This document shows positions 2,961 through 61,282 of a DNA stretch of 64,000 nt, one piece after another. The DNA lies in contig JAYWIR010000003.1 in assembly GCA_036172245.1 (NCBI GenBank), positions 4,092,001-4,156,000 of the forward strand, read 5' to 3'. The position numbers and the translations under genes were made by a program. Position 1 is the stretch's first letter. Each line of letters begins with the position of its first letter. The DNA is from Raillietiella orientalis. Lineage: Eukaryota. The notes under the pieces are model-generated. The model was not told the origin of the DNA and searched no databases. It was given only the letters and a program-made list of their open reading frames with translations.

Positions 2961-3699
2961 TTAAATAACGTTTTAAATTTCTATCAGTTGACTTTTAAAT
3001 AAGATTAAAAGTAAGAGATTTGAAAAGTTTTGGAAGTAGCATTACACCACTCCAGAAAGTTTCTCTTGTGATACATCTCCAGTTTTCCTGAAGGTTTCAG
3101 CAAAGTTTGAGCAGAAATAGGCTGTAGAAGGTGAATATATGAGAATAACTAAAATTAATGAAATTATTTATCAAATACCTTCAAGAAAATTGATAAATCT
3201 CTTTGATGGAATTGTCATTTTTGTTTCGTAATTTTTATTTCGAACCGAGTTAGCTTTCTCTTGATGATTACCAGTGAAGCAGTCCTTTTTCTTTAAGGGC
3301 TAGCAACTATTACATTTTTTACTCTATTGAAAAAGCAGATTCATCTTCAGCATTTCTTCATAATTAATAAACATGCTTCTCAATTTAAGATGCATCACCC
3401 AATGTACTTTTTATAGTGATCATTTTATATATGACGAAATGTTTTCTGCCAGTGCAACCACGCTTTGATTATTTGAGGCTGTTCTTGCATTTGCTATCTT
3501 ATAATATCAACCACACTGGAGTAAACTTCTTAGGCTACTCGGTTATTATTTTCAAGAACACTTTTGTCATCATCCTTTAATCGTCTCCATTGACAAAAAA
3601 ATTGACAAGTATAGCAATTTTTCTTTTTTCCCTTTTTTTTAAAAAAAAAGTAATATATTTGCCATTTAAATCCAACTTAATCCTTACATTCTTCCTACT

Positions 3700-3920
3700 A
3701 ATCGGTGTTAGTGCGGCAACACTGAATCCACGAATGGGCTCTCCTTGCATGTGCCGTGCACGAAGTCGGTGGAAACCGCGAATTCCGAGTGCGTTTAGTG
3801 CGAGAGCACAGTCTGCATATGAAAAGTGAACTCATGGAGGGCGACTGCGTGAGCGAAGCCAAGAAAAATGTAATGACGAAAAGCAAACCGATCCCACACG
3901 ACTCATTAGTCGTTCAAGGT
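3700..3920 (+). promoter_or_regulatory. CpG-rich promoter/first-exon island of DHPS
   Basis: Local cluster of CG dinucleotides in otherwise AT-rich, CpG-poor DNA, spanning the DHPS start codon and exon 1. Confidence 0.5.
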
Positions 3921-6369
3921 GAGTCAAGTTTGGTGTATTCAAGCTGATTGATCAGTGCGGATGCTGTTTTTCAAGCTACGAATTGTGTGTGTTTGAAAGC
4001 ATCCTTAAATTCATCATCTTAGGGTATGATTTCAACAATGGAATACATTTCGAAGAGATAATAAACTCATTTAAATGTTGTGGGTTTCAAGCAACCAACA
4101 TTTCTCTTGCCATAGAAGAAATCAACAAGATGGTAAAATGAGAAGCTGCCCCCAAAATTTTTTCCCTCGTTTGGTGGATAGATTTCATCCAGGAATGAAT
4201 TGGCAGATGTTGTTTATGAAGATAGTGCTTACTATCGAAGTACAAAAAATTGCACTTTATTTTTGGGATATACATCAAATATGGTGTCAAGTGGTTTACG
4301 TGACATTATTTGTTTCTTGGTCCAGCACAATATGGTAAGAGACAGTTCTTTGTTTGTCGTTTTGCTTCTGTGGAATATTCTGAGTTTGAGCAAATCTAAT
4401 TATTTTAGCAAATTCGCCAAGTACGGAAACAGTTTGCAAACTTGTGGGAAATAAGTATAAATGAAAATGATTGGATATCTTTTTAAAGATACAAAAGTTT
4501 CCAACACAAAGTGGTCTTCCTTTCATATTATTATTCTATCTTTCATCTTATTCTCCGAAACTTACAGTAGACAATGATCCCATGAGTTTGATGTAAAATA
4601 TGATTTTGATGTGAGTTGATTGGAAATGAATTATCCAGTTGGAGTACGAATGAAATAGCCAAAGAATGACAGAAATATTGTGACCACACAACGTGTTTGA
4701 CATGGCATCATCATTTTATCTCTAGCAAAATTAAATTAATGAATCAGCTTGAACTTATGCGGACTGATAATTTTGTGTTCACCTGTGGAACTGGAAGAAT
4801 CAGCAAAATAGTTGAGAACCTGCGTGGTGTGAAGCTCTTAGGAGATAACTTGGGAGGATTTGTGTAAAGAACACTTTTATGAAAGATCCTTGAAATTTCT
4901 TGCATGATTATTTGCATTGCATTGTTACATTGGTTATGAGTGATTATGCTTATAATAGTTATAAAAGAAAAGGAATATCATTGCAACTGTTTGCAAAAGA
5001 GGTATGCAAAGAATTATTTTCTTCAAGGATTTCTGGATCCTATGTTTAAATGTTATTTGTTCATTCAAATGCAAAAAAATGTAAAAAACCAAAGCATCAT
5101 GCAAAAAGCATTATGAATTAAGGAAAATGATATGATATTAATTCGATATTTCGTACGCTCCTTGCCTGCCAGCTTCTTTTATTTATTACCTTCCGCACTC
5201 CCAGAATTCACTTTGACTTGTAGCTGGTGGAAGTGATTAGGTTATCCACCTCGTCAGTTCTGATACATCTCAATTCAAGATGGTGCATAGACAGCATATA
5301 AGCATTGTGACGGGTTTTATGTGTTCCCATTCCTTTTCTGCTTGTATCAGATTACAACTTATATAATTTTCATATTATGAATTATGCATACAGATCATTT
5401 CAGGTTGTAATTTCTGGAGATCAAATGAGACTGTCCTTGTCCCAAGCTAAGTGGTGTGTATTTTTAGGTTGATTGCATTGTAACTTCAGCTGGTGGTGTG
5501 GAGGAAGATCTTATCAAGTGTCTTGCACCCTTCTTTCTTGGTGACTTTAATCTTGATGGTGCTACGCTTCGCAAACAAGGATACAATCGTATTGGTAATC
5601 TCTTGGTGCCCAATGATAACTACTGCCGCTTCCAGGACTGGATCTTACCAGTGCTAGATCAGATGTTGTTAGAGCAGAAAAATGAGGTAGATTTGAAAAA
5701 ACAATGCACGATATACTTCTCAGGGTGTTATCTGGAGTCCTAGCAAGATGATTGCCCGTCTTGGAAAAGAAATAAACAATCCACGTTCCATTTGCTACTG
5801 GGCCTCACGCAATGGCATTCCAATTTTCTGCCCTGGGATTACAGATGGCAGCCTAGGAGATATGCTGTTTTTTCACTCCTGTAATAATCCAGGGCTTGTA
5901 CTAGACATCATTCAAGGTACAATTTGAGAACTGAATTAATGTTTTCATATGTGTCAATGTACTTCAGATGTATGTTACATCAACATGATAGCACTGAAAG
6001 CTCGAAGCACAGGCATGGTCATCCTGGGAGGAGGCCTTATTAAACATCACATATGTAATGCTAATCTTATGGTAAGAAGCATATATTTCTTATTCCCATA
6101 ATGTAAATGTTTATTTGTAGAGAAATGGAGCTGATTACTCTGTTTATATCAACACAGGCCAGGAATTTGATGGAAGCGATAGTGGTGCTTCACCAGATGA
6201 GGCAGTTTCTTGGGGCAAAATACGTTCTGATTGTCATGCTGTCAAAGTAAGTGAAGTGACTCGATCATATGGCTAACTTGTACTTTCCCAGATATTCTGT
6301 GATGCAACTATTGTATTCCCTTTAATTGTCGCTTCCACATTTGCCAAAAACCATATTACCAATAAATAA
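3819..6369 (+). CDS. DHPS: Deoxyhypusine synthase (8 exons; alternative start ATG at 3834)
   Basis: GT-AG splicing gives a continuous frame: ...VQGYDFNNG...GFQATN...[18 protein letters not shown]...[21 protein letters not shown]...[13 protein letters not shown]...[12 protein letters not shown]...[51 protein letters not shown]...[17 protein letters not shown]. The active-site Lys in WGKI is intact. Intron 3 (4335-5467) is 1133 nt; the others are 37-104 nt. Confidence 0.97.
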
Positions 6370-6464
6370 AATATCCAGAAAATGGGATTGGAGAAGGGGA
6401 ACTGATTTCCTTATTATATCTTTTGATTTTTTGTTTTTGCTTTTATTTTTACTTTCCAGTCAAA
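6361..6464 (+). promoter_or_regulatory. DHPS poly(A) signal, U-rich tract and unpaired 3' splice acceptor (candidate trans-splice site) before CRYZ
   Basis: AATAAATAAA at 6361-6370 overlaps the DHPS stop. A T-rich tract runs ~6421-6455 and ends in TTTCCAG (AG at 6458-6459), followed by TCAAA-ATG. No plausible GT donor lies in the gap. Confidence 0.6.
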
Positions 6465-8167
6465 ATGAAGGCCATTCAGGTAGCAGCAGTTGGAGGCCCA
6501 GAAGTATTAAAAGTTTCTCATGAAGTACCCATACCAGAAATCAAAGATGATCAAGTTGAGCAGCAAGATTCTTTCCCGTTTTTCTAAAGTTATTTTAGGT
6601 ACTGATTCAAATCAGTCATGCAGGAGTCAATCCTGTGGATACTTACATACGTTCAAATCAGTTTGATTACGTTCATTCGTTTCCATACATCCCTGGATTT
6701 GATGGTGCAGGCACTATAAAAGCTCTTGGCCAAGGAACTGTAACCAAATTTCAAGTCAGTCGAAGTTTATCCCAGTTTTTGCGATCGACTTGAATATGCT
6801 AACTTGTGAGTAGGTTGGTCAGCGGGTGTTCTGCTGTGGACCATGTGGCACCTATGCAGAATATGCTGCTTGTGATGCATCTTGTGTGTTTCCACTTCCT
6901 GATCATATCACCACGGAACAAGGAGCAGCATTGGGCATTGCTTATTTCACTGCCTACCGTGCACTTTTTCAAAAGTAAATGGCATTTTGCGCTCTGGGTT
7001 GTTGTGCTTTTCCTGAATCTGACTTGTCATGCATGTGTCATCAGGAAGTTGCTTTGCAACAGTATTAGCAAAAGTGCACATTTGCTTCTCATGCTTCCAT
7101 CAGGTCATTTTAATTTGATCTGGTGCACTACTGTCTTCCTCTATTTTCTTTTTATTTTCTCTTGGATTCTTATCTTAAAGTCTCAGATAATCAGTACTTG
7201 GGTTACCGAGACAATGGAATTTGCATTGTTTTCTCCAAGATAAATTGATCTCTTACGTTTTCTGTTTGTGTGGTTACTTACGTCGTTCGTTACGTTTCCT
7301 CCCGTTAAGGTGCCATTCAGATGTGCTTGGTGCATGGCACAGTAGCAATTTTGCATGCGATTCTACAGACATATGTTGCTATTGCTATTTTTCGTTCCAT
7401 AGAGGCAGAGCACAGTCTGGAGAGCGTATTCTCATCCACGGAGCAAGTGGAGCCGTTGGCTTGGCGTGTGTTCAGCTCTGCAAGTTCAAGAGTATGGGAC
7501 TGCAAAATTAGTAACTACTACTCATTTTCCTTCCATCGTAGATCTCCAAGTATGGGGGACAGCAGGAACTCAAGATGGAGAAAGACTGTTACTGCAGCAT
7601 GGAGTTGATTTCGTGTTCAATCATCGGTAATTAAACATGCCCTCACCGCGTGCTGAAAGTCCAATCGAGTCTTACCCATCAGAAGCCCCAACTATTGGGC
7701 TGAGTTAATGCGGAGCACTGGTAACGAAGGTTTCGACGTGATCGTTGAAATGCTGGCCAACGTGAATCTGCAACACGACTTGCACATGGTGGCTCGCAAC
7801 GGACGAATCATAGTAGGAACCTCCGCTTCTTCATCTTGGATACGTTCGATGATGCTTTCCCAGATCGTCGGCTGTCGTGGACAATTATCCCTCAGTGATC
7901 CCCGTTCCTTGATGATGCGCGAAAGCAGCATTATTGGTGTCTACCTCTTCCTTGCTACGGAGGTGAATATGTCCCTACAGCAGTTTTCAACTCTTATTCC
8001 AGGCCGAACGTGAAGAGATGAGTGTTGAAGTGCAGAAAGGACTGGAGAGCAAGCGCTTGTCCCCCGTCATCAATAGTGTGTTTTCCCTAGAAGATGCACC
8101 GAAAGCTCACGAGCTGATTATGAGTTCCTCCGGAGCGAAGGGGAAAATTGTGTTAAAGATACAATAA
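6465..8167 (+). CDS. CRYZ: Quinone oxidoreductase / zeta-crystallin (MDR family), 8 coding exons
   Basis: Spliced protein: MKAIQVAAVGGPEVLKV...VLIQISHAGVNPVDTYIRS...PYIPGFDGAG...GAALGIAYFTAYRALFQ...ILIHGASGAVGLACVQ...WGTAGTQDG...GFDVIVEMLANVNLQHDL...GRIIIVGCRG...EDAPKAHELIMSSSGAKGKIVLKIQ*. All introns are GT-AG. Confidence 0.95.
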
Positions 8168-8899
8168 AAACAAGGAAGATTGTCTTATGATCACCACAAC
8201 TTTGTGGTTCGATTTTTCGAAGCCCCCAATCACCATTTCTTCACTTTCTGATACTTCTGCAGCAGCTCTACAGATCTGTGATTCTATGCTTGGGTTTTCT
8301 CCTTGTCTTTTAAGCACTTTCATGTGATTGTGCCACTTGCAGTGGCGATTCGATTCCTCCTAGAACCATTCTCAAACTTATCCTTTCCAAACCTAAAGTT
8401 GTTTCTTGAAATTCTTGCTTCACATGAAAACTCATGTGACGAAAGATAGTTTGGCTTCAACATCCCTGCTAACTTTCTGATCAGTCGCATAAATCCTTCT
8501 GAATGCAAAACCTATTCGTTCCTCAAAGAGGTCGGTGCCTGATACTCGTAGCTGGAAGATGAGTCGTCAGAAATCGGAGGAACTCGGCCGAGACTGATCA
8601 GTTCGCGGATGTCTTCACCTTCCGGTGTCCAGAGAATCTGCCGTGTCCTTCCAGATATTCCTTTTCTGTTTCCGGGTAACAGGCAGAGTAAACTCTCGGA
8701 ATGGCTCCATTAGGGGGAAGTCATTTTGTAGCACTCATTTTTCCAACTCCTTGGCGATCGACTTAACTGTAGAGTGCGAGCAGTTTCGTGGTCATCGTGC
8801 GCTTCGCCTCAGTCGCTCCTCGTCCCATACTCTCATGCGAAGAAGTTCTGCTGGGATCTAGCCCTAGCTGCTCGCCGCTCCATGTGGAAATCCGGGCTT

Positions 8900-10290
8900 T
8901 CTCTTTTTAGCTGCTCCTTGATCTAAGACGTCTCCTTTGCATCATACCGAAAAGGAGATGTGTCCAACGGGCTCCGGCCAGCAGCACGAGTTTCATCATC
9001 TCCGTGCAGTGCCAGGTGAGAAATACGGATGTGGCCCCCGTGCTCTTGTTGAGAGATAAACAGAATCGTCTTCGTCTATTTGTCTTCACCAAGCGTTGCT
9101 GGCTGATGTCAAGGGTGCTGGCGCTGCTGTTGTTGCCTGTCTCATTCGAGTTTCTAGTCCCTGCACTGGAGCTCTTTTTCCCAAGTCCCACAAGGGGTGG
9201 GGTGAATTTATTTTCTTTTATCACTCACTCTACATACTCATGCATTCATTTTCTCCAATCATTCCACTTATGTCACCTGGAAGTCTGTTTCGTGGGATTA
9301 ACACTAAGGTTCACTACACTTGGGGAACTGGACGTCGTTTATGCCTGGACGTTGTCCTCAATCCTTCTCGGGATATGTCGGTAGTTCCAGATCTGTACTC
9401 TTCCACAGTTTCTTATGCCGATCTCCTTCTGGATAAGCCCTTTCAGGCTTTCCATCGGAGATACGGCGGTCCCTGTTTCCAGATTCTTCTTCTCCAGCAC
9501 TACGACTTCCCCTTCTACGTTTTGGAAGACGTACCGACTCTCGTATTGTTCCCAATACTTCGAGAGGAAGCGCTCTTGGATGTGCAGCTCCCGGTACGCT
9601 TCCTGCCTCAGTCGCTTGTCACCGAGCTGCATGTTGCAGAACAGGTGGACTCGGTGTTTCAAGCTACCCCGGTCGGCGACTCTGCGGATACTGGTCGTCT
9701 GCAGAATCGTCTTTATAACTTCTTGATGGCAGGGTAGCGTTTCGAACCAGGCGGCCATGCTGATGAGCGCCGCCCTCGTGGCCTTCTTTCGCCGAAGGTT
9801 TTCAGTCCGCAGGGAAAACCTCACCGGCGGGTGATCGAACAGCAATGCGGGAGAGTCACGAAATCCGTGGATATGGCTCACTATATCGTAGCTGTAGAAG
9901 ACGTGGTCCGAAGCAGCAGTCCGAACTCGTCGGACAGCCGCCGATACGCCGTCCTGCCTCTGGTGTCCCGGGAATGGATGATTTCGTCCAGGATGTTGAA
10001 ATCCCCCACGATGATCACGATGTCCTTCGGTGCGAGCTTTTGTCGCAGTGTTCCGTGGAGCGCCTCCGCGCACTGATGCTTTTGGTGGTGTGGTCCGTAT
10101 ACGCTCACCAAAAACAGGTGAACATTTGCGGACCAGGACATTCGTACGCCGACGATTCTTCCCGGTATGGGGCAGATGGTCTCCAGGATGGTGTAAGCGA
10201 GCTCGTTCCTTATCGAGATCCCCACACCCATGGTGTTCTTCTGTCCCTCGCTGGCGAACAGCTTTGCGTTCAAACATCGGTGCACTCGAG
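8900..10290 (-). mobile_element. Degenerate APE-type LINE relic (endonuclease domain, linker and probable start of the RT region)
   Basis: ORF 9881-10285 has GVGISIR...IPGRIVGVR...LVSVYGP...IIVGDFNI. After a frameshift, ORF 9339-10277 supplies DHVF and DHPPV; these are exonuclease-endonuclease-phosphatase motifs. Downstream LSLNKSTG (~9040-9060) resembles the pre-RT KSPG motif. There are multiple stops and frameshifts and no YADD. Confidence 0.7.
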
Positions 10291-58283: not shown

Positions 58284-61282
58284 ATGAATAAACTTACAAC
58301 AATAATATACTTACTGCTTTGGACCGTTGGTATGTAGAAGCTTCATAGGAATTAAATATTTTTCGATTTAGATGATTCAGAAAGCAAGCCCTTGATTAAA
58401 GATCAAGAGAAGGCAGCACTGGACCTCATACAAAGAACACTGCCAAATGAAGGCCACCTGTTCTCTGTCAAGATAACACCAGAACTAAGCCCAGATGGAA
58501 GACTTGCTTTCAAGGTTTGTTGCAAACAAATTGATTATAACCTGTACAGTTGAACACTGTTGGAACACCGACAGTGGAGATTTGGGCAAACTCGGGGGTA
58601 GCAGCAGCATGGAGTTTCCATCATTTTTTGAAGTATTATTGCATGAGTCATATATCGTGGACTGAGTTCAGAATTTCCTTCCCTAACCCCATTCCGGTTA
58701 TCAACATAACAAGGATTGCCCAAGACAGGTTGTATTAACAGCACAGACTGAAAGTCAACACCTGGCAGATGGCGCTACTATGGGAATATGGTGACATTTA
58801 GCTACAGCTTTGTATGGTGGCAGTGGCCTCAATGGGAGAAACATTTGGACTGGTTGGCCATGAATGGGTTTGATCTGATTCTGGCTCCCACAGGTCAGGA
58901 AGCCATTTGGAAACGAACATATTTTCACATGGGATTAGTAGAGGAAGACTTGGAGTTTGCTGGTCCAGCTTTTCTGGGCTGGTGAGTGCATGTAACAAAT
59001 TAAATGATTTCCTCTTCATACCAGTTTAGGAACAGAATGGGAAACCTAAAAGAGTGGGGTGGTCCACTAACAGCAAAATGGCATGATAAGCAAGTTCAAC
59101 TACAGCATCAGATTCTGGAACGAATTAGGGTACTGGGCATGACCTCTGTTTTGCCAGCATTTTCTGGTAATGTTCCTCAAGCTATTCGTAGGTGAGTTGC
59201 TTTGGCCAATGTTGATCATGTTCTCCAGGTTGTATCCCAATTCTTCTTTTACTCAGCTGGCGTCATGGAACAAATTCTCTTGTGACTACTCCTGGTAAGC
59301 ATGGAATCAGAAAAAGCTGAACATGCTTTCATGGACTTGATTTCAGTTCTTTATTTTTGCACCCCACTGACTCCCTGTTTCAAGTCATAGCTCATCAGTT
59401 CCATAAAGAGGTAGGAGAAAAAAGTTGCAAAGTAGTGCCATAGTAATCTTGCAGCTCACAAATGAGTTTGGCACAGACCATTTTTACAGCTGTGATCCCT
59501 TCAATGAAATAACACCTCCATCTGATGATCCAGAATATCTTCAGGAGGTTTCCCAAACTATTGCTGCTGTGCTGCTGCAAGCAGATCCAAATGCCACCTG
59601 GTAGACTCCATTTGCTGAGTCTTGTTAATTCTTTTATCTAGGGTGCTTCAGGGATGGATGTTTGTGAACAGTACCTTCTGGACTTTAGCCAAAAGTCGAG
59701 CATTTCTTCAAGGGGTACCTATGGTAAGAGCATCAGAAAAACAGAGTTTCTGATGAAAATGCTGTTACAGGAACACTTGCTAGTGCTTGATTTGCAGGCT
59801 GAACTTCAGCCTCAGTACATTCGTCTTCAGTCTTTCTTTGGATATCCTTTCATCTGGTGTCTCCTGCACAATTTCGGGGGCATGACAGAGATGCACGGAT
59901 CTCTGTCCCTTGTAAGCAAGGTACAGGAGGGAACTGCATCAGGATAACAGAAGCACTTGTCAGGGGCCATTTGCAGCACGTGACTGGCCTGGAAGTAGCA
60001 TGGTAGGGGTAGGATTGACCATGGAAGGAATTTCCCAGAATTACGCAATCTATGACTTGTTTACAGAAGTTACCTGGCAGCAGAAGCCAATTGAAGTGGA
60101 TACTTGGGTCAAGATGTATTCTCAAAGACGTTATGGGATACAGAGTGATCTCTTGGCTGATGCTTGGGATCATCTTCAAGTAAGCATCTTTCAAGTTTTT
60201 TTTTTTTTTTTTTTTCTGCCACTAACAGGACATTTCTTGGAAAAACAGCACTCTGTGTACAACTGCAGCTTTGTACTAAGGGACCATCATGGACACAGCA
60301 TCATTAGTAGAAGACCTTCATTACGCCTTCAGGCACAGGTGCATCTCTCTCTCCCTCTCTTCCTTAGCTGCAGTAGATGGTTTATTTTATCAGATCTGGT
60401 ATGATGCACGAGTACTTGTGAATGCATGGAACTTCCTTGTGAAAGCAGCAAAAGCATTCCCGGAATTAGAGAGCATAGCTACATTTCGACACGATTTGGT
60501 AGATGTTGGACGACAAGTGTTGCAGGTACAAGGTGCAGCACTGTATGGTGATTTGGTGATGGCATACCAACAGCGTAATGGCAGTCACCTATTGTGAGTG
60601 AGAAAGACTAGGCAAGGCATTGTTTTCAGGAGTACTACAGAGCAGATGCTGGATCTTCTCCGAGATCTGGATTCTTTACTTGCCACTTCCCCCAACTTTT
60701 TACTGGGTCAATGGTTGAATGCCGCCAAGACGTGGGGAGATGACGATGTTGTAAGGGAAAAATCGATTATGATGCTTACTCCAAAATTTTTGTTCGTTGA
60801 AAGGAGAAGAGCAAATACGAATTCAACAGCAGGAATCAAATAACTCTCTGGGGACCCAATGGCGAAATCGGAGACTACGCCAGTAAACAGTGGGCAGGAA
60901 TAGTAGGCCACTACTATCTCCCTCGTTGGAGCATGTTTGCAAATGCTCTCGTTCAAGCACTTGCTGATCACTCTCAATTTTCTCAGAAGCAGTTCAATAA
61001 AGAAGTTTTCTTACAAATAGAGCACCCCTTCACCCTCGATGATACCCCCTTTCCCAACAGTACTACAGGTAACACCCATTAATATGTTAATAGTCACACT
61101 TCCACCTAGGAAACCTTCTGGAATTGTCCTCGGCATTATACCGAAAGTGGGGTCATACGACCAAGAAAATGTGGAGACAGTCATTGAAGAAGATGAGTCA
61201 AAGATGGCTGAGAAGACACGCAGGTGACCCATCATACGAGGCTCACTTTGTCCGTGCCTTGGTGACATCAAGCATCACTTAA
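58284..61282 (+). CDS. NAGLU: Alpha-N-acetylglucosaminidase (GH89), 16 exons
   Basis: Signal peptide [15 protein letters not shown]. Motifs: [65 protein letters not shown] (catalytic Glu); [32 protein letters not shown] (second catalytic Glu); [34 protein letters not shown]. All introns are GT-AG. Confidence 0.97.

Follow-up and report, generated by a model that had tools for sequence, protein, structure and literature searches.

The DHPS-CRYZ junction of Raillietiella orientalis: a candidate operon that may be resolved by spliced-leader trans-splicing

We studied the junction between two neighbouring genes, DHPS (deoxyhypusine synthase) and CRYZ (zeta-crystallin/quinone oxidoreductase), in a stretch of 64,000 nucleotides (nt) from the genome of Raillietiella orientalis (contig JAYWIR010000003.1, positions 4,092,001 to 4,156,000 of the forward strand; referred to as the window, to which all coordinates without a prefix belong). 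Both genes are on the same strand, and only 95 nt separate the DHPS stop codon (TAA, 6367-6369) from the CRYZ ATG at 6465. The junction is real and non-random, and it is one of a class, as two similar junctions were found elsewhere in the genome. When three variants of such an arrangement are summed, DHPS and CRYZ likely form a single transcription unit, and the variant that we favour, with slightly less than even confidence and judging from the anatomy of the DNA, is a unit that would be resolved by spliced-leader (SL) trans-splicing.

The region between DHPS and CRYZ

A first-pass annotation of the window had proposed two intact genes in close succession, and all of its coordinates hold, with unbroken frames of 355 and 324 amino acids (aa; Table 1). 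The top match of CRYZ in the PDB is human zeta-crystallin (1yb5). A genome search returned a single match for the DHPS-CRYZ locus, i.e. the locus is single-copy, and no retrocopy or paralogue that might bear a leader turned up. No DHPS-CRYZ fusion protein was present among the 120 DHPS matches listed or in the single CRYZ match, which is weak evidence. For comparison we used 40 stretches from the same assembly (210 Mb, 491 contigs), each 10 kb long and surrounding a gene for an Sm/LSm protein, a proteasome subunit or a member of the Ras family; a small gene finder was trained on them.

The U-rich tract of the gap is unusual. Over the 37 nt that precede the AG at 6458-6459, which lies 5 nt upstream of the CRYZ ATG, the T fraction is higher than at any of 100 predicted intron acceptors (maximum 0.68) and higher than in any of 50 other start regions (maximum 0.62). 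Measured from the other side, the best T tract 3' of the DHPS AATAAA reaches 0.76, a value to be set against a maximum of 0.59 among 21 other genes. The tract extends from about 52 to 89 nt past the AATAAA and runs up to the AG, so that poly(A) signal and AG are about 90 nt apart. The remaining elements are less conspicuous: the hairpin at 6395-6412 folds no better than shuffled sequences (z -0.25), and the TAYYTT hexamer, which is present in 116 of 351 T-rich 50-mers, is not above chance. A joint motif built on the DHPS-CRYZ junction had no second match in 970,508 nt, which is a description rather than a test.

The gap contains no usable donor, although donors farther upstream within DHPS might pair with the AG. 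As the first-pass annotation had stated, its sole GT (6433) would create an intron of 27 nt, while the shortest intron of the training set has 37 nt; moreover, the donor score of this GT is -2.9, as compared to a 5th percentile of 2.9 for 101 donors. The same annotation called the acceptor strong, and this is justified for its long tract, but not for its matrix score, which is only 3.2.

At the 3' side of CRYZ no same-strand coding stretch was found within 300 nt, consistent with CRYZ being the last gene of the unit.

Table 1. Coordinates of DHPS, CRYZ and the elements of their junction in the window
Feature	Position	Strand	Remarks
DHPS (deoxyhypusine synthase)	3834..6369	+	8 exons, 355 aa; hand-curated unbroken frame; Pfam PF01916 (DS)
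DHPS exons	3834-3918, 4023-4132, 4182-4334, 5468-5686, 5724-5916, 5968-6071, 6121-6246, 6292-6369	+	
DHPS exon 1	3834..3918	+	phase-1 donor at 3919, score 6.5; additional in-frame ATG at 3819
CpG-rich 5' region of DHPS	3600..4000	+	20 CpG, observed/expected ratio (o/e) 1.14, vs 0.36 across DHPS exons 4-8
Nearest strong donor upstream of the unpaired acceptor (DHPS intron 7)	6247..6253	+	score 6.7, phase 0
Two overlapping AATAAA	6361..6370	+	6361-6366 and 6365-6370, the latter over the stop TAA; read from the sequence
Upstream ATG, 7-codon frame	6382..6405	+	weak start context (-0.7)
Short hairpin, then TAYYTT hexamer	6395..6422	+	hairpin 6395-6412; hexamer at 6417-6422, i.e. at -43 relative to the splice site
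U-rich tract	6420..6456	+	T fraction 0.73; includes GT 6433 (score -2.9), the only one between the two genes
Unpaired 3' splice site	6453..6459	+	AG 6458-6459; candidate acceptor for trans-splicing or for long-range cis-splicing
CRYZ (zeta-crystallin/quinone oxidoreductase)	6465..8167	+	8 exons, 324 aa; Pfam ADH_N/ADH_zinc_N
CRYZ exons	6465-6554, 6599-6754, 6814-6974, 7403-7491, 7542-7626, 7683-7812, 7864-7962, 8003-8167	+	
AATAAA on CRYZ stop	8163..8168	+	end of the unit

Two further junctions and genes that begin at an acceptor

The first-pass annotation had suggested looking for more same-strand gaps of about 100 nt, and the 40 stretches indeed contain two further tight pairs with unpaired acceptors, EB1-PSMB2 and SPTLC2-TUBGCP6, although the sample is small. 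The distances between same-strand neighbours are bimodal, with 81, 95 and 143 nt on the one hand and 2.5-4.8 kb (five pairs) on the other; four of the loose pairs, with 3.2-4.8 kb, come from the 40 stretches, a small sample with incomplete gene calls. Past 33 stop codons (34 were examined, SmB was dropped as mis-called) three coding stretches within 300 nt were found, all of them beginning at an acceptor, with the qualification that the three upstream genes had been included because the pairs were already known. The gene finder merged EB1 with PSMB2 just as it merged DHPS with CRYZ.

In both additional pairs the downstream frame starts at the acceptor, has no ATG and is in frame 0 (two of two). 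The EB1 stop and the PSMB2 acceptor are 143 nt apart, and PSMB2 begins with residue 2 right after the acceptor (L148:4609-4753, G000:C50 near 1,073,553); its homologues mostly have one residue ahead of the aligned start. PSMB2 was the sole full beta-type-2 match in our proteasome search and is apparently single-copy, and as the only full match of its subunit it must be expressed. A conventional source of its ATG is not evident, since the EB1-PSMB2 gap contains no donor with an in-frame ATG scoring above -0.4, and no ATG/GT site scoring above 3.1 exists in the 14.7 kb upstream of PSMB2. In the second pair the distance from the stop of the SPTLC2-like gene, which we take to be SPTLC2 from its motifs, to a T-rich acceptor with a score of 9.0 is 81 nt (L147:499-581, G000:C18 near 367,851), and past this acceptor an ATG-less frame runs into a TUBGCP6-like gene. 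The identity of the latter is based on its later exons; its first exon is unmatched in PDB and Atlas and is thus only a putative N-terminus. Five genes with a split start were checked, and PSMA4, SmF, LSm7, LSm4 and, less surely, LSm2 all have an ordinary upstream ATG exon. Frame 0 at both ATG-less genes would also be predicted by a cis-spliced ATG exon that escaped our view.

Genes are closely spaced in other orientations as well: housekeeping genes are often arranged tail to tail with gaps of 43, 132 and 152 nt (L130, L132, L138 and others), and in about a quarter of the genes AATAAA overlaps or precedes the stop codon, i.e. their 3' untranslated regions (UTRs) are extremely short.

Trans-splicing and competing explanations

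Based on these features we propose that DHPS and CRYZ may be transcribed as one unit that would start in the CpG-rich region before DHPS (likely the promoter of the whole unit) and would involve read-through into CRYZ. The DHPS message would be cut and polyadenylated shortly past its stop codon, the downstream RNA would escape degradation, and the U-rich tract together with the AG at 6459 may constitute a trans-splice site to which a capped leader would be joined from an SL RNA. CRYZ would finally be translated from its own ATG 5 nt past the splice site. The start context of this ATG ranks second among 51, which is expected if it is the first AUG to be read. Under trans-splicing the recurrence of short gaps, the tract, the unpaired AG and the strong CRYZ ATG would all be covered by one rule, and a leader that carries an AUG would also account for the ATG-less PSMB2, for which the parts of PMC9851317 that deal with flatworm leaders provide a precedent. 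Extending this idea, one may speculate that a pentastomid evolved SL-resolved operons, the first in an arthropod, with a leader that, like that of flatworms, provides the initiator AUG and would have permitted downstream genes such as PSMB2 and TUBGCP6 to lose their start exon, while the second gene of DHPS-CRYZ kept its ATG; in this extended form we regard the scenario as rather unlikely.

The unpaired acceptor could also be served in cis. Comparing the seven DHPS donors with the acceptor before CRYZ, those of exon 1 and exon 5 (phase 1) join in frame, giving proteins of 354 and 579 aa, respectively, and the other five do not; this agrees with the first-pass annotation, which had named these two donors as an alternative, and the exon 1 join takes some weight from trans-splicing. 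The two genes might share a promoter and first exon, with some transcripts being cis-spliced from 3919 to 6460, skipping DHPS exons 2-8 and endowing CRYZ with about 30 additional N-terminal residues, an explanation that is possible, if on balance doubtful. The long U tract would fit a long intron, and in human CRYZ the corresponding Met is preceded by a few residues (it is number 30 in the chain of a tagged construct of 351 aa, with the tag length inferred). Drosophila offers parallels, as the sections of PMC4528330 on such loci list 130 genes with a common promoter and 5' non-coding exons as well as 10 pairs and a triplet with common coding starts. ATG-less downstream genes would be explained, too, and the predicted phase of SPTLC2 exon 1 suits TUBGCP6. 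However, such a splice would have to bypass seven exons and a poly(A) signal, and there is no convincing inverted repeat between intron 1 and the gap, nor any that could loop out DHPS or EB1. The first coding exon of EB1 ends in phase 1, which is wrong for PSMB2 and would call for a cryptic donor, and most PSMB2 homologues extend by a single residue beyond the aligned start. Finally, CRYZ retains a strong start context, and an in-frame join would occur by chance in about one of three cases.

A second explanation without a leader is a promoter of CRYZ itself, located within the last DHPS exons or in the gap, with a short 5' UTR that is either unspliced or spliced from 6247 to 6460. The donor of DHPS intron 7 is strong and would give an intron of 213 nt without producing a fused frame, and the very short 3' UTRs and the tight packing of genes at their 3' ends (the convergent gaps given above) are compatible with such a promoter. 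Overlaps of 3' and 5' UTRs are described as routine for Drosophila in the relevant part of PMC4528330. The base composition gives an ambiguous answer: the first-pass annotation had contrasted a CRYZ without a CpG-rich promoter with DHPS, and the difference is there (CpG o/e in the 300 nt upstream 0.43 vs 1.19), but as an argument for a common promoter it is weak, as in 6 of 50 other genes the upstream value is even below that of CRYZ. Nevertheless, CpG is scarce in DHPS exons 6-8 and in the gap (o/e 0.29), the other same-strand neighbours are at least 2.5 kb apart, an unspliced UTR leaves tract and AG unexplained, and a separate promoter does not readily supply an ATG for PSMB2, so that we consider this explanation unlikely. 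An unspliced CRYZ 5' end that starts before 6382 would, in addition, carry the upstream ATG at this position, which is absent from the first-pass annotation.

The same upstream ATG speaks against an uncut dicistronic mRNA as in Drosophila, in which the DHPS poly(A) signal would be ignored in some transcripts and ribosomes would re-initiate at CRYZ. The gap is short, and 159 annotated dicistronic pairs are given for Drosophila in the corresponding passage of PMC4528330; yet the double AATAAA at the DHPS stop would have to be passed over, the acceptor would be left without a role and an ATG-less PSMB2 cannot arise in this way, which makes such an mRNA very unlikely. Both a separate CRYZ promoter and an uncut mRNA thus fit less well than trans-splicing.

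In addition to the in-frame join and the CpG values, several other observations weigh against trans-splicing. The operon signals listed by the first-pass annotation (AATAAA, U tract and acceptor) are all present and the tract is exceptional, but AATAAA over the stop codon is ordinary in the R. orientalis genome and no operon mark: it occurs at or before the end of the stop codon in 8 of 31 other genes and in CRYZ itself, and we rejected it as a mark for this reason. The matrix score of the CRYZ acceptor is modest, between the 5th and the 25th percentile, i.e. its strength lies in the long tract, and the scarcity of GT is not exceptional, with 1186 of 15268 AT-rich non-coding windows (7.8%) containing at most one GT per 90 nt. 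All scores for splice sites and coding potential were obtained with a small model trained on this genome itself and are rough. The gaps of EB1-PSMB2 and SPTLC2-TUBGCP6 lack AATAAA and TAYYTT and contain several GT; without these two motifs, neither gap reproduces the anatomy seen at DHPS-CRYZ. For PSMB2 three cis starts at chance level exist, namely a 3-codon exon (L148:3005-3013, donor 4.5), a 4-nt exon in EB1 intron 1 (L148:3094-3097, acceptor 7.7, donor 2.4) and a cryptic donor in EB1 exon 1 (score 4.0), and the predicted exon 1 of SPTLC2 is in phase 0, allowing a cis start at chance level for TUBGCP6 as well. Moreover, many housekeeping genes, including DHPS, have no acceptor near their ATG, and trans-splicing therefore cannot be general.

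The bicistronic, SL-trans-spliced unit proposed by the first-pass annotation has gained from the two additional junctions and from the likelihood of a single unit, but the SL RNA gene for which that annotation suggested a genome search was not found, and the negative results likewise count against trans-splicing. A genome search with Rfam SL1 gave 0 matches (SL2 was not searched), and an Rfam scan of 20 U1, U2 and 5S loci and of the window revealed no SL family. U1, U2 and 5S genes were located in the genome and supplied the pattern of the Sm site. A scan for a donor followed by an Sm site detected no SL-like gene near 40 small nuclear RNA (snRNA) and 5S loci, and no promoter element common to the upstream regions of U1, U2 and 5S was seen. 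Genome-wide, one donor-plus-Sm pattern had 24 matches vs 26 in controls, with no convincing repeated family, and a second one, with an exon ending in ATG, had 87 vs 54, an excess that ordinary short introns would produce, again with no repeated family. None of the 28 matches inspected out of 111 (12 + 16) was SL-RNA-like in its fold; 16 of the 87 matches of the ATG-ending pattern were folded, with z between -1.3 and 1.2. The 10-nt core of the Parhyale leader matched at one of 200 loci, in an unrelated context. As the two patterns are narrow guesses, the failure to find an SL RNA is weak evidence.

The best SL RNA candidate, which occurs twice on C106 and has its donor base-paired within a hairpin, was rejected, as it is part of a dispersed repeat and its fold is inconspicuous (z -0.26). 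The repeat has 15 matches of 70-100% identity and ends that we take to be DNA-transposon-like.

The snRNA and 5S loci themselves have several peculiarities. There are two distinct U1 variants (L058-L066), and the Sm site of the U1 snRNA consists of five U and AG, which replace the usual motif. Of 12 U2 matches, the majority are truncated at the 5' side and follow retroelement ends, and U1 copies stand at the head of LINE-like elements or interrupt them, with a tandem spacing of 5.5 kb (L046-L071); both suggest snRNA-targeted or snRNA-headed elements. The 5S rRNA genes form inverted pairs with a distance of about 1.7 kb, and a decayed 5S copy lies beside them (L080-L085; C24, C40).

Host, known systems and surroundings of the locus

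The host is an arthropod, as judged from sequence comparisons, and probably a pentastomid (tongue worm). The top three matches of the COX1 of the assembly are pentastomids (Armillifer, Linguatula; 73-74%), and in a tree COX1 groups with pentastomids at 100/100 against 11 insects, a result that may be affected by long-branch attraction since no other crustacean was included. The DHPS of the window is placed among arthropods at 92/98, separate from the sole nematode in the tree, and the contig of the window itself carries a cox1 copy with 84% identity over 203 nt. The first-pass annotation had called a bicistronic unit notable if the host was an arthropod, and the placement of COX1 and DHPS agrees with such a host. 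The cox1 gene has many nuclear copies (L002 and 53 other places); L002 also contains a duplicated tRNA-like piece as well as an insert between cox1 and cox2, and may therefore be either nuclear itself or a mitochondrial contig that was rearranged.

Nematodes, tunicates, flatworms and chaetognaths are known to have operons resolved by an SL, and if a leader exists, DHPS-CRYZ would work like an operon of nematodes or tunicates. As in the SL2-type operons of Caenorhabditis elegans and Trichinella spiralis, to the extent that they are described in the relevant passages of PMC7668243 and PMC7986045, unrelated genes follow each other on one strand, and a poly(A) signal, a U-rich stretch and an unpaired acceptor are assembled within about 100 nt. 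The Ur element TAYYTT, which is located about 50 nt before the splice site in these operons according to the same part of PMC7668243, lies at a similar distance here, but it is at chance level in DHPS-CRYZ and missing in the other two gaps. Further differences are that the host is an arthropod and that neither an SL RNA nor an SL2 stem-loop was found. The presumed distance from the poly(A) site to the acceptor is nearer 70 nt, as compared to medians of 124-129 nt quoted in these passages. Very short gaps and housekeeping genes are also typical of the operons that Ciona, Oikopleura and the chaetognath Paraspadella gotoi resolve with an SL (PMC7986045, PMC12460157); in the chaetognath study, PMC12460157, genes less than 250 bp apart were regarded as candidate operons. 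In these animals, in contrast, a large share of the genes is trans-spliced and the leaders are known from RNA, whereas here many housekeeping genes are devoid of an acceptor near the ATG.

Within crustaceans, the lineage to which our host would belong, SL trans-splicing occurs in copepods and amphipods (sections of PMC7986045 and PMC5111886 on these groups), i.e. arthropods are able to trans-splice leaders, while operons are given as unreported in crustaceans with known leaders in the corresponding statement of PMC7986045 (2021). The flatworm leader ends in AUG (Cheng et al. 2006, as cited in the passage of PMC9851317 mentioned above), which resembles the situation at PSMB2 and the TUBGCP6-like gene, whose ATG-less frames start at the acceptor in frame 0. 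At CRYZ, however, a leader AUG would be out of frame and open an upstream frame of 3 codons, and the search with the ATG-ending pattern revealed no SL RNA gene of this type. The shared-5'-exon pairs of Drosophila, e.g. Ip259/RpS27A and Su(var)3-9/eIF2gamma (PMC4528330, in its account of such pairs), have in common with DHPS-CRYZ that unrelated arthropod genes may depend on one promoter and that an in-frame join of the first exon is possible, but differ from it in the seven exons and the poly(A) signal to be skipped and in the phase misfit at EB1-PSMB2.

Our search of the freely accessible literature, to which the first reports of SLs in crustaceans do not belong, found no paper that connects pentastomids with trans-splicing and none on SL operons in arthropods. 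If trans-splicing held true, DHPS-CRYZ would represent an independent origin of operons inside Arthropoda with close relatives available for comparison, and would allow testing whether operons follow parasitism and genome compaction. A shared first exon would be ordinary in kind, yet unusually frequent. Such gaps are also relevant to annotation, as our gene finder fused the neighbours at DHPS-CRYZ and EB1-PSMB2.

Upstream of DHPS, an INTS12-like gene with a PHD finger (1-1308 and L015:8518-10000) is located on the same strand and ends about 2.5 kb before DHPS. It is preceded by a possible small spliced gene or UTR exons (L015:7830-8290), which have no Pfam match and leave about 230 nt to the INTS12 ATG. 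Between INTS12 and DHPS, positions 2400-2960 hold the remnant of a non-LTR (long terminal repeat) retrotransposon end followed by AATAAA; the remnant shows a similarity of 25-33% to elements that neighbour U2 fragments and of 47% to a copy in L166, and presumably belongs to the restriction-like endonuclease type. Downstream of CRYZ, a conserved hairpin-like element end on the minus strand (9170-9215) is common to LINE-like copies at U1 and 5S loci. The first intron of LSm5 (L131:4808-4900), read by eye, appears to be of the GC-AG type. Further along the window, NAGLU (alpha-N-acetylglucosaminidase; 58372-61082) has short introns and stands isolated among repeats.

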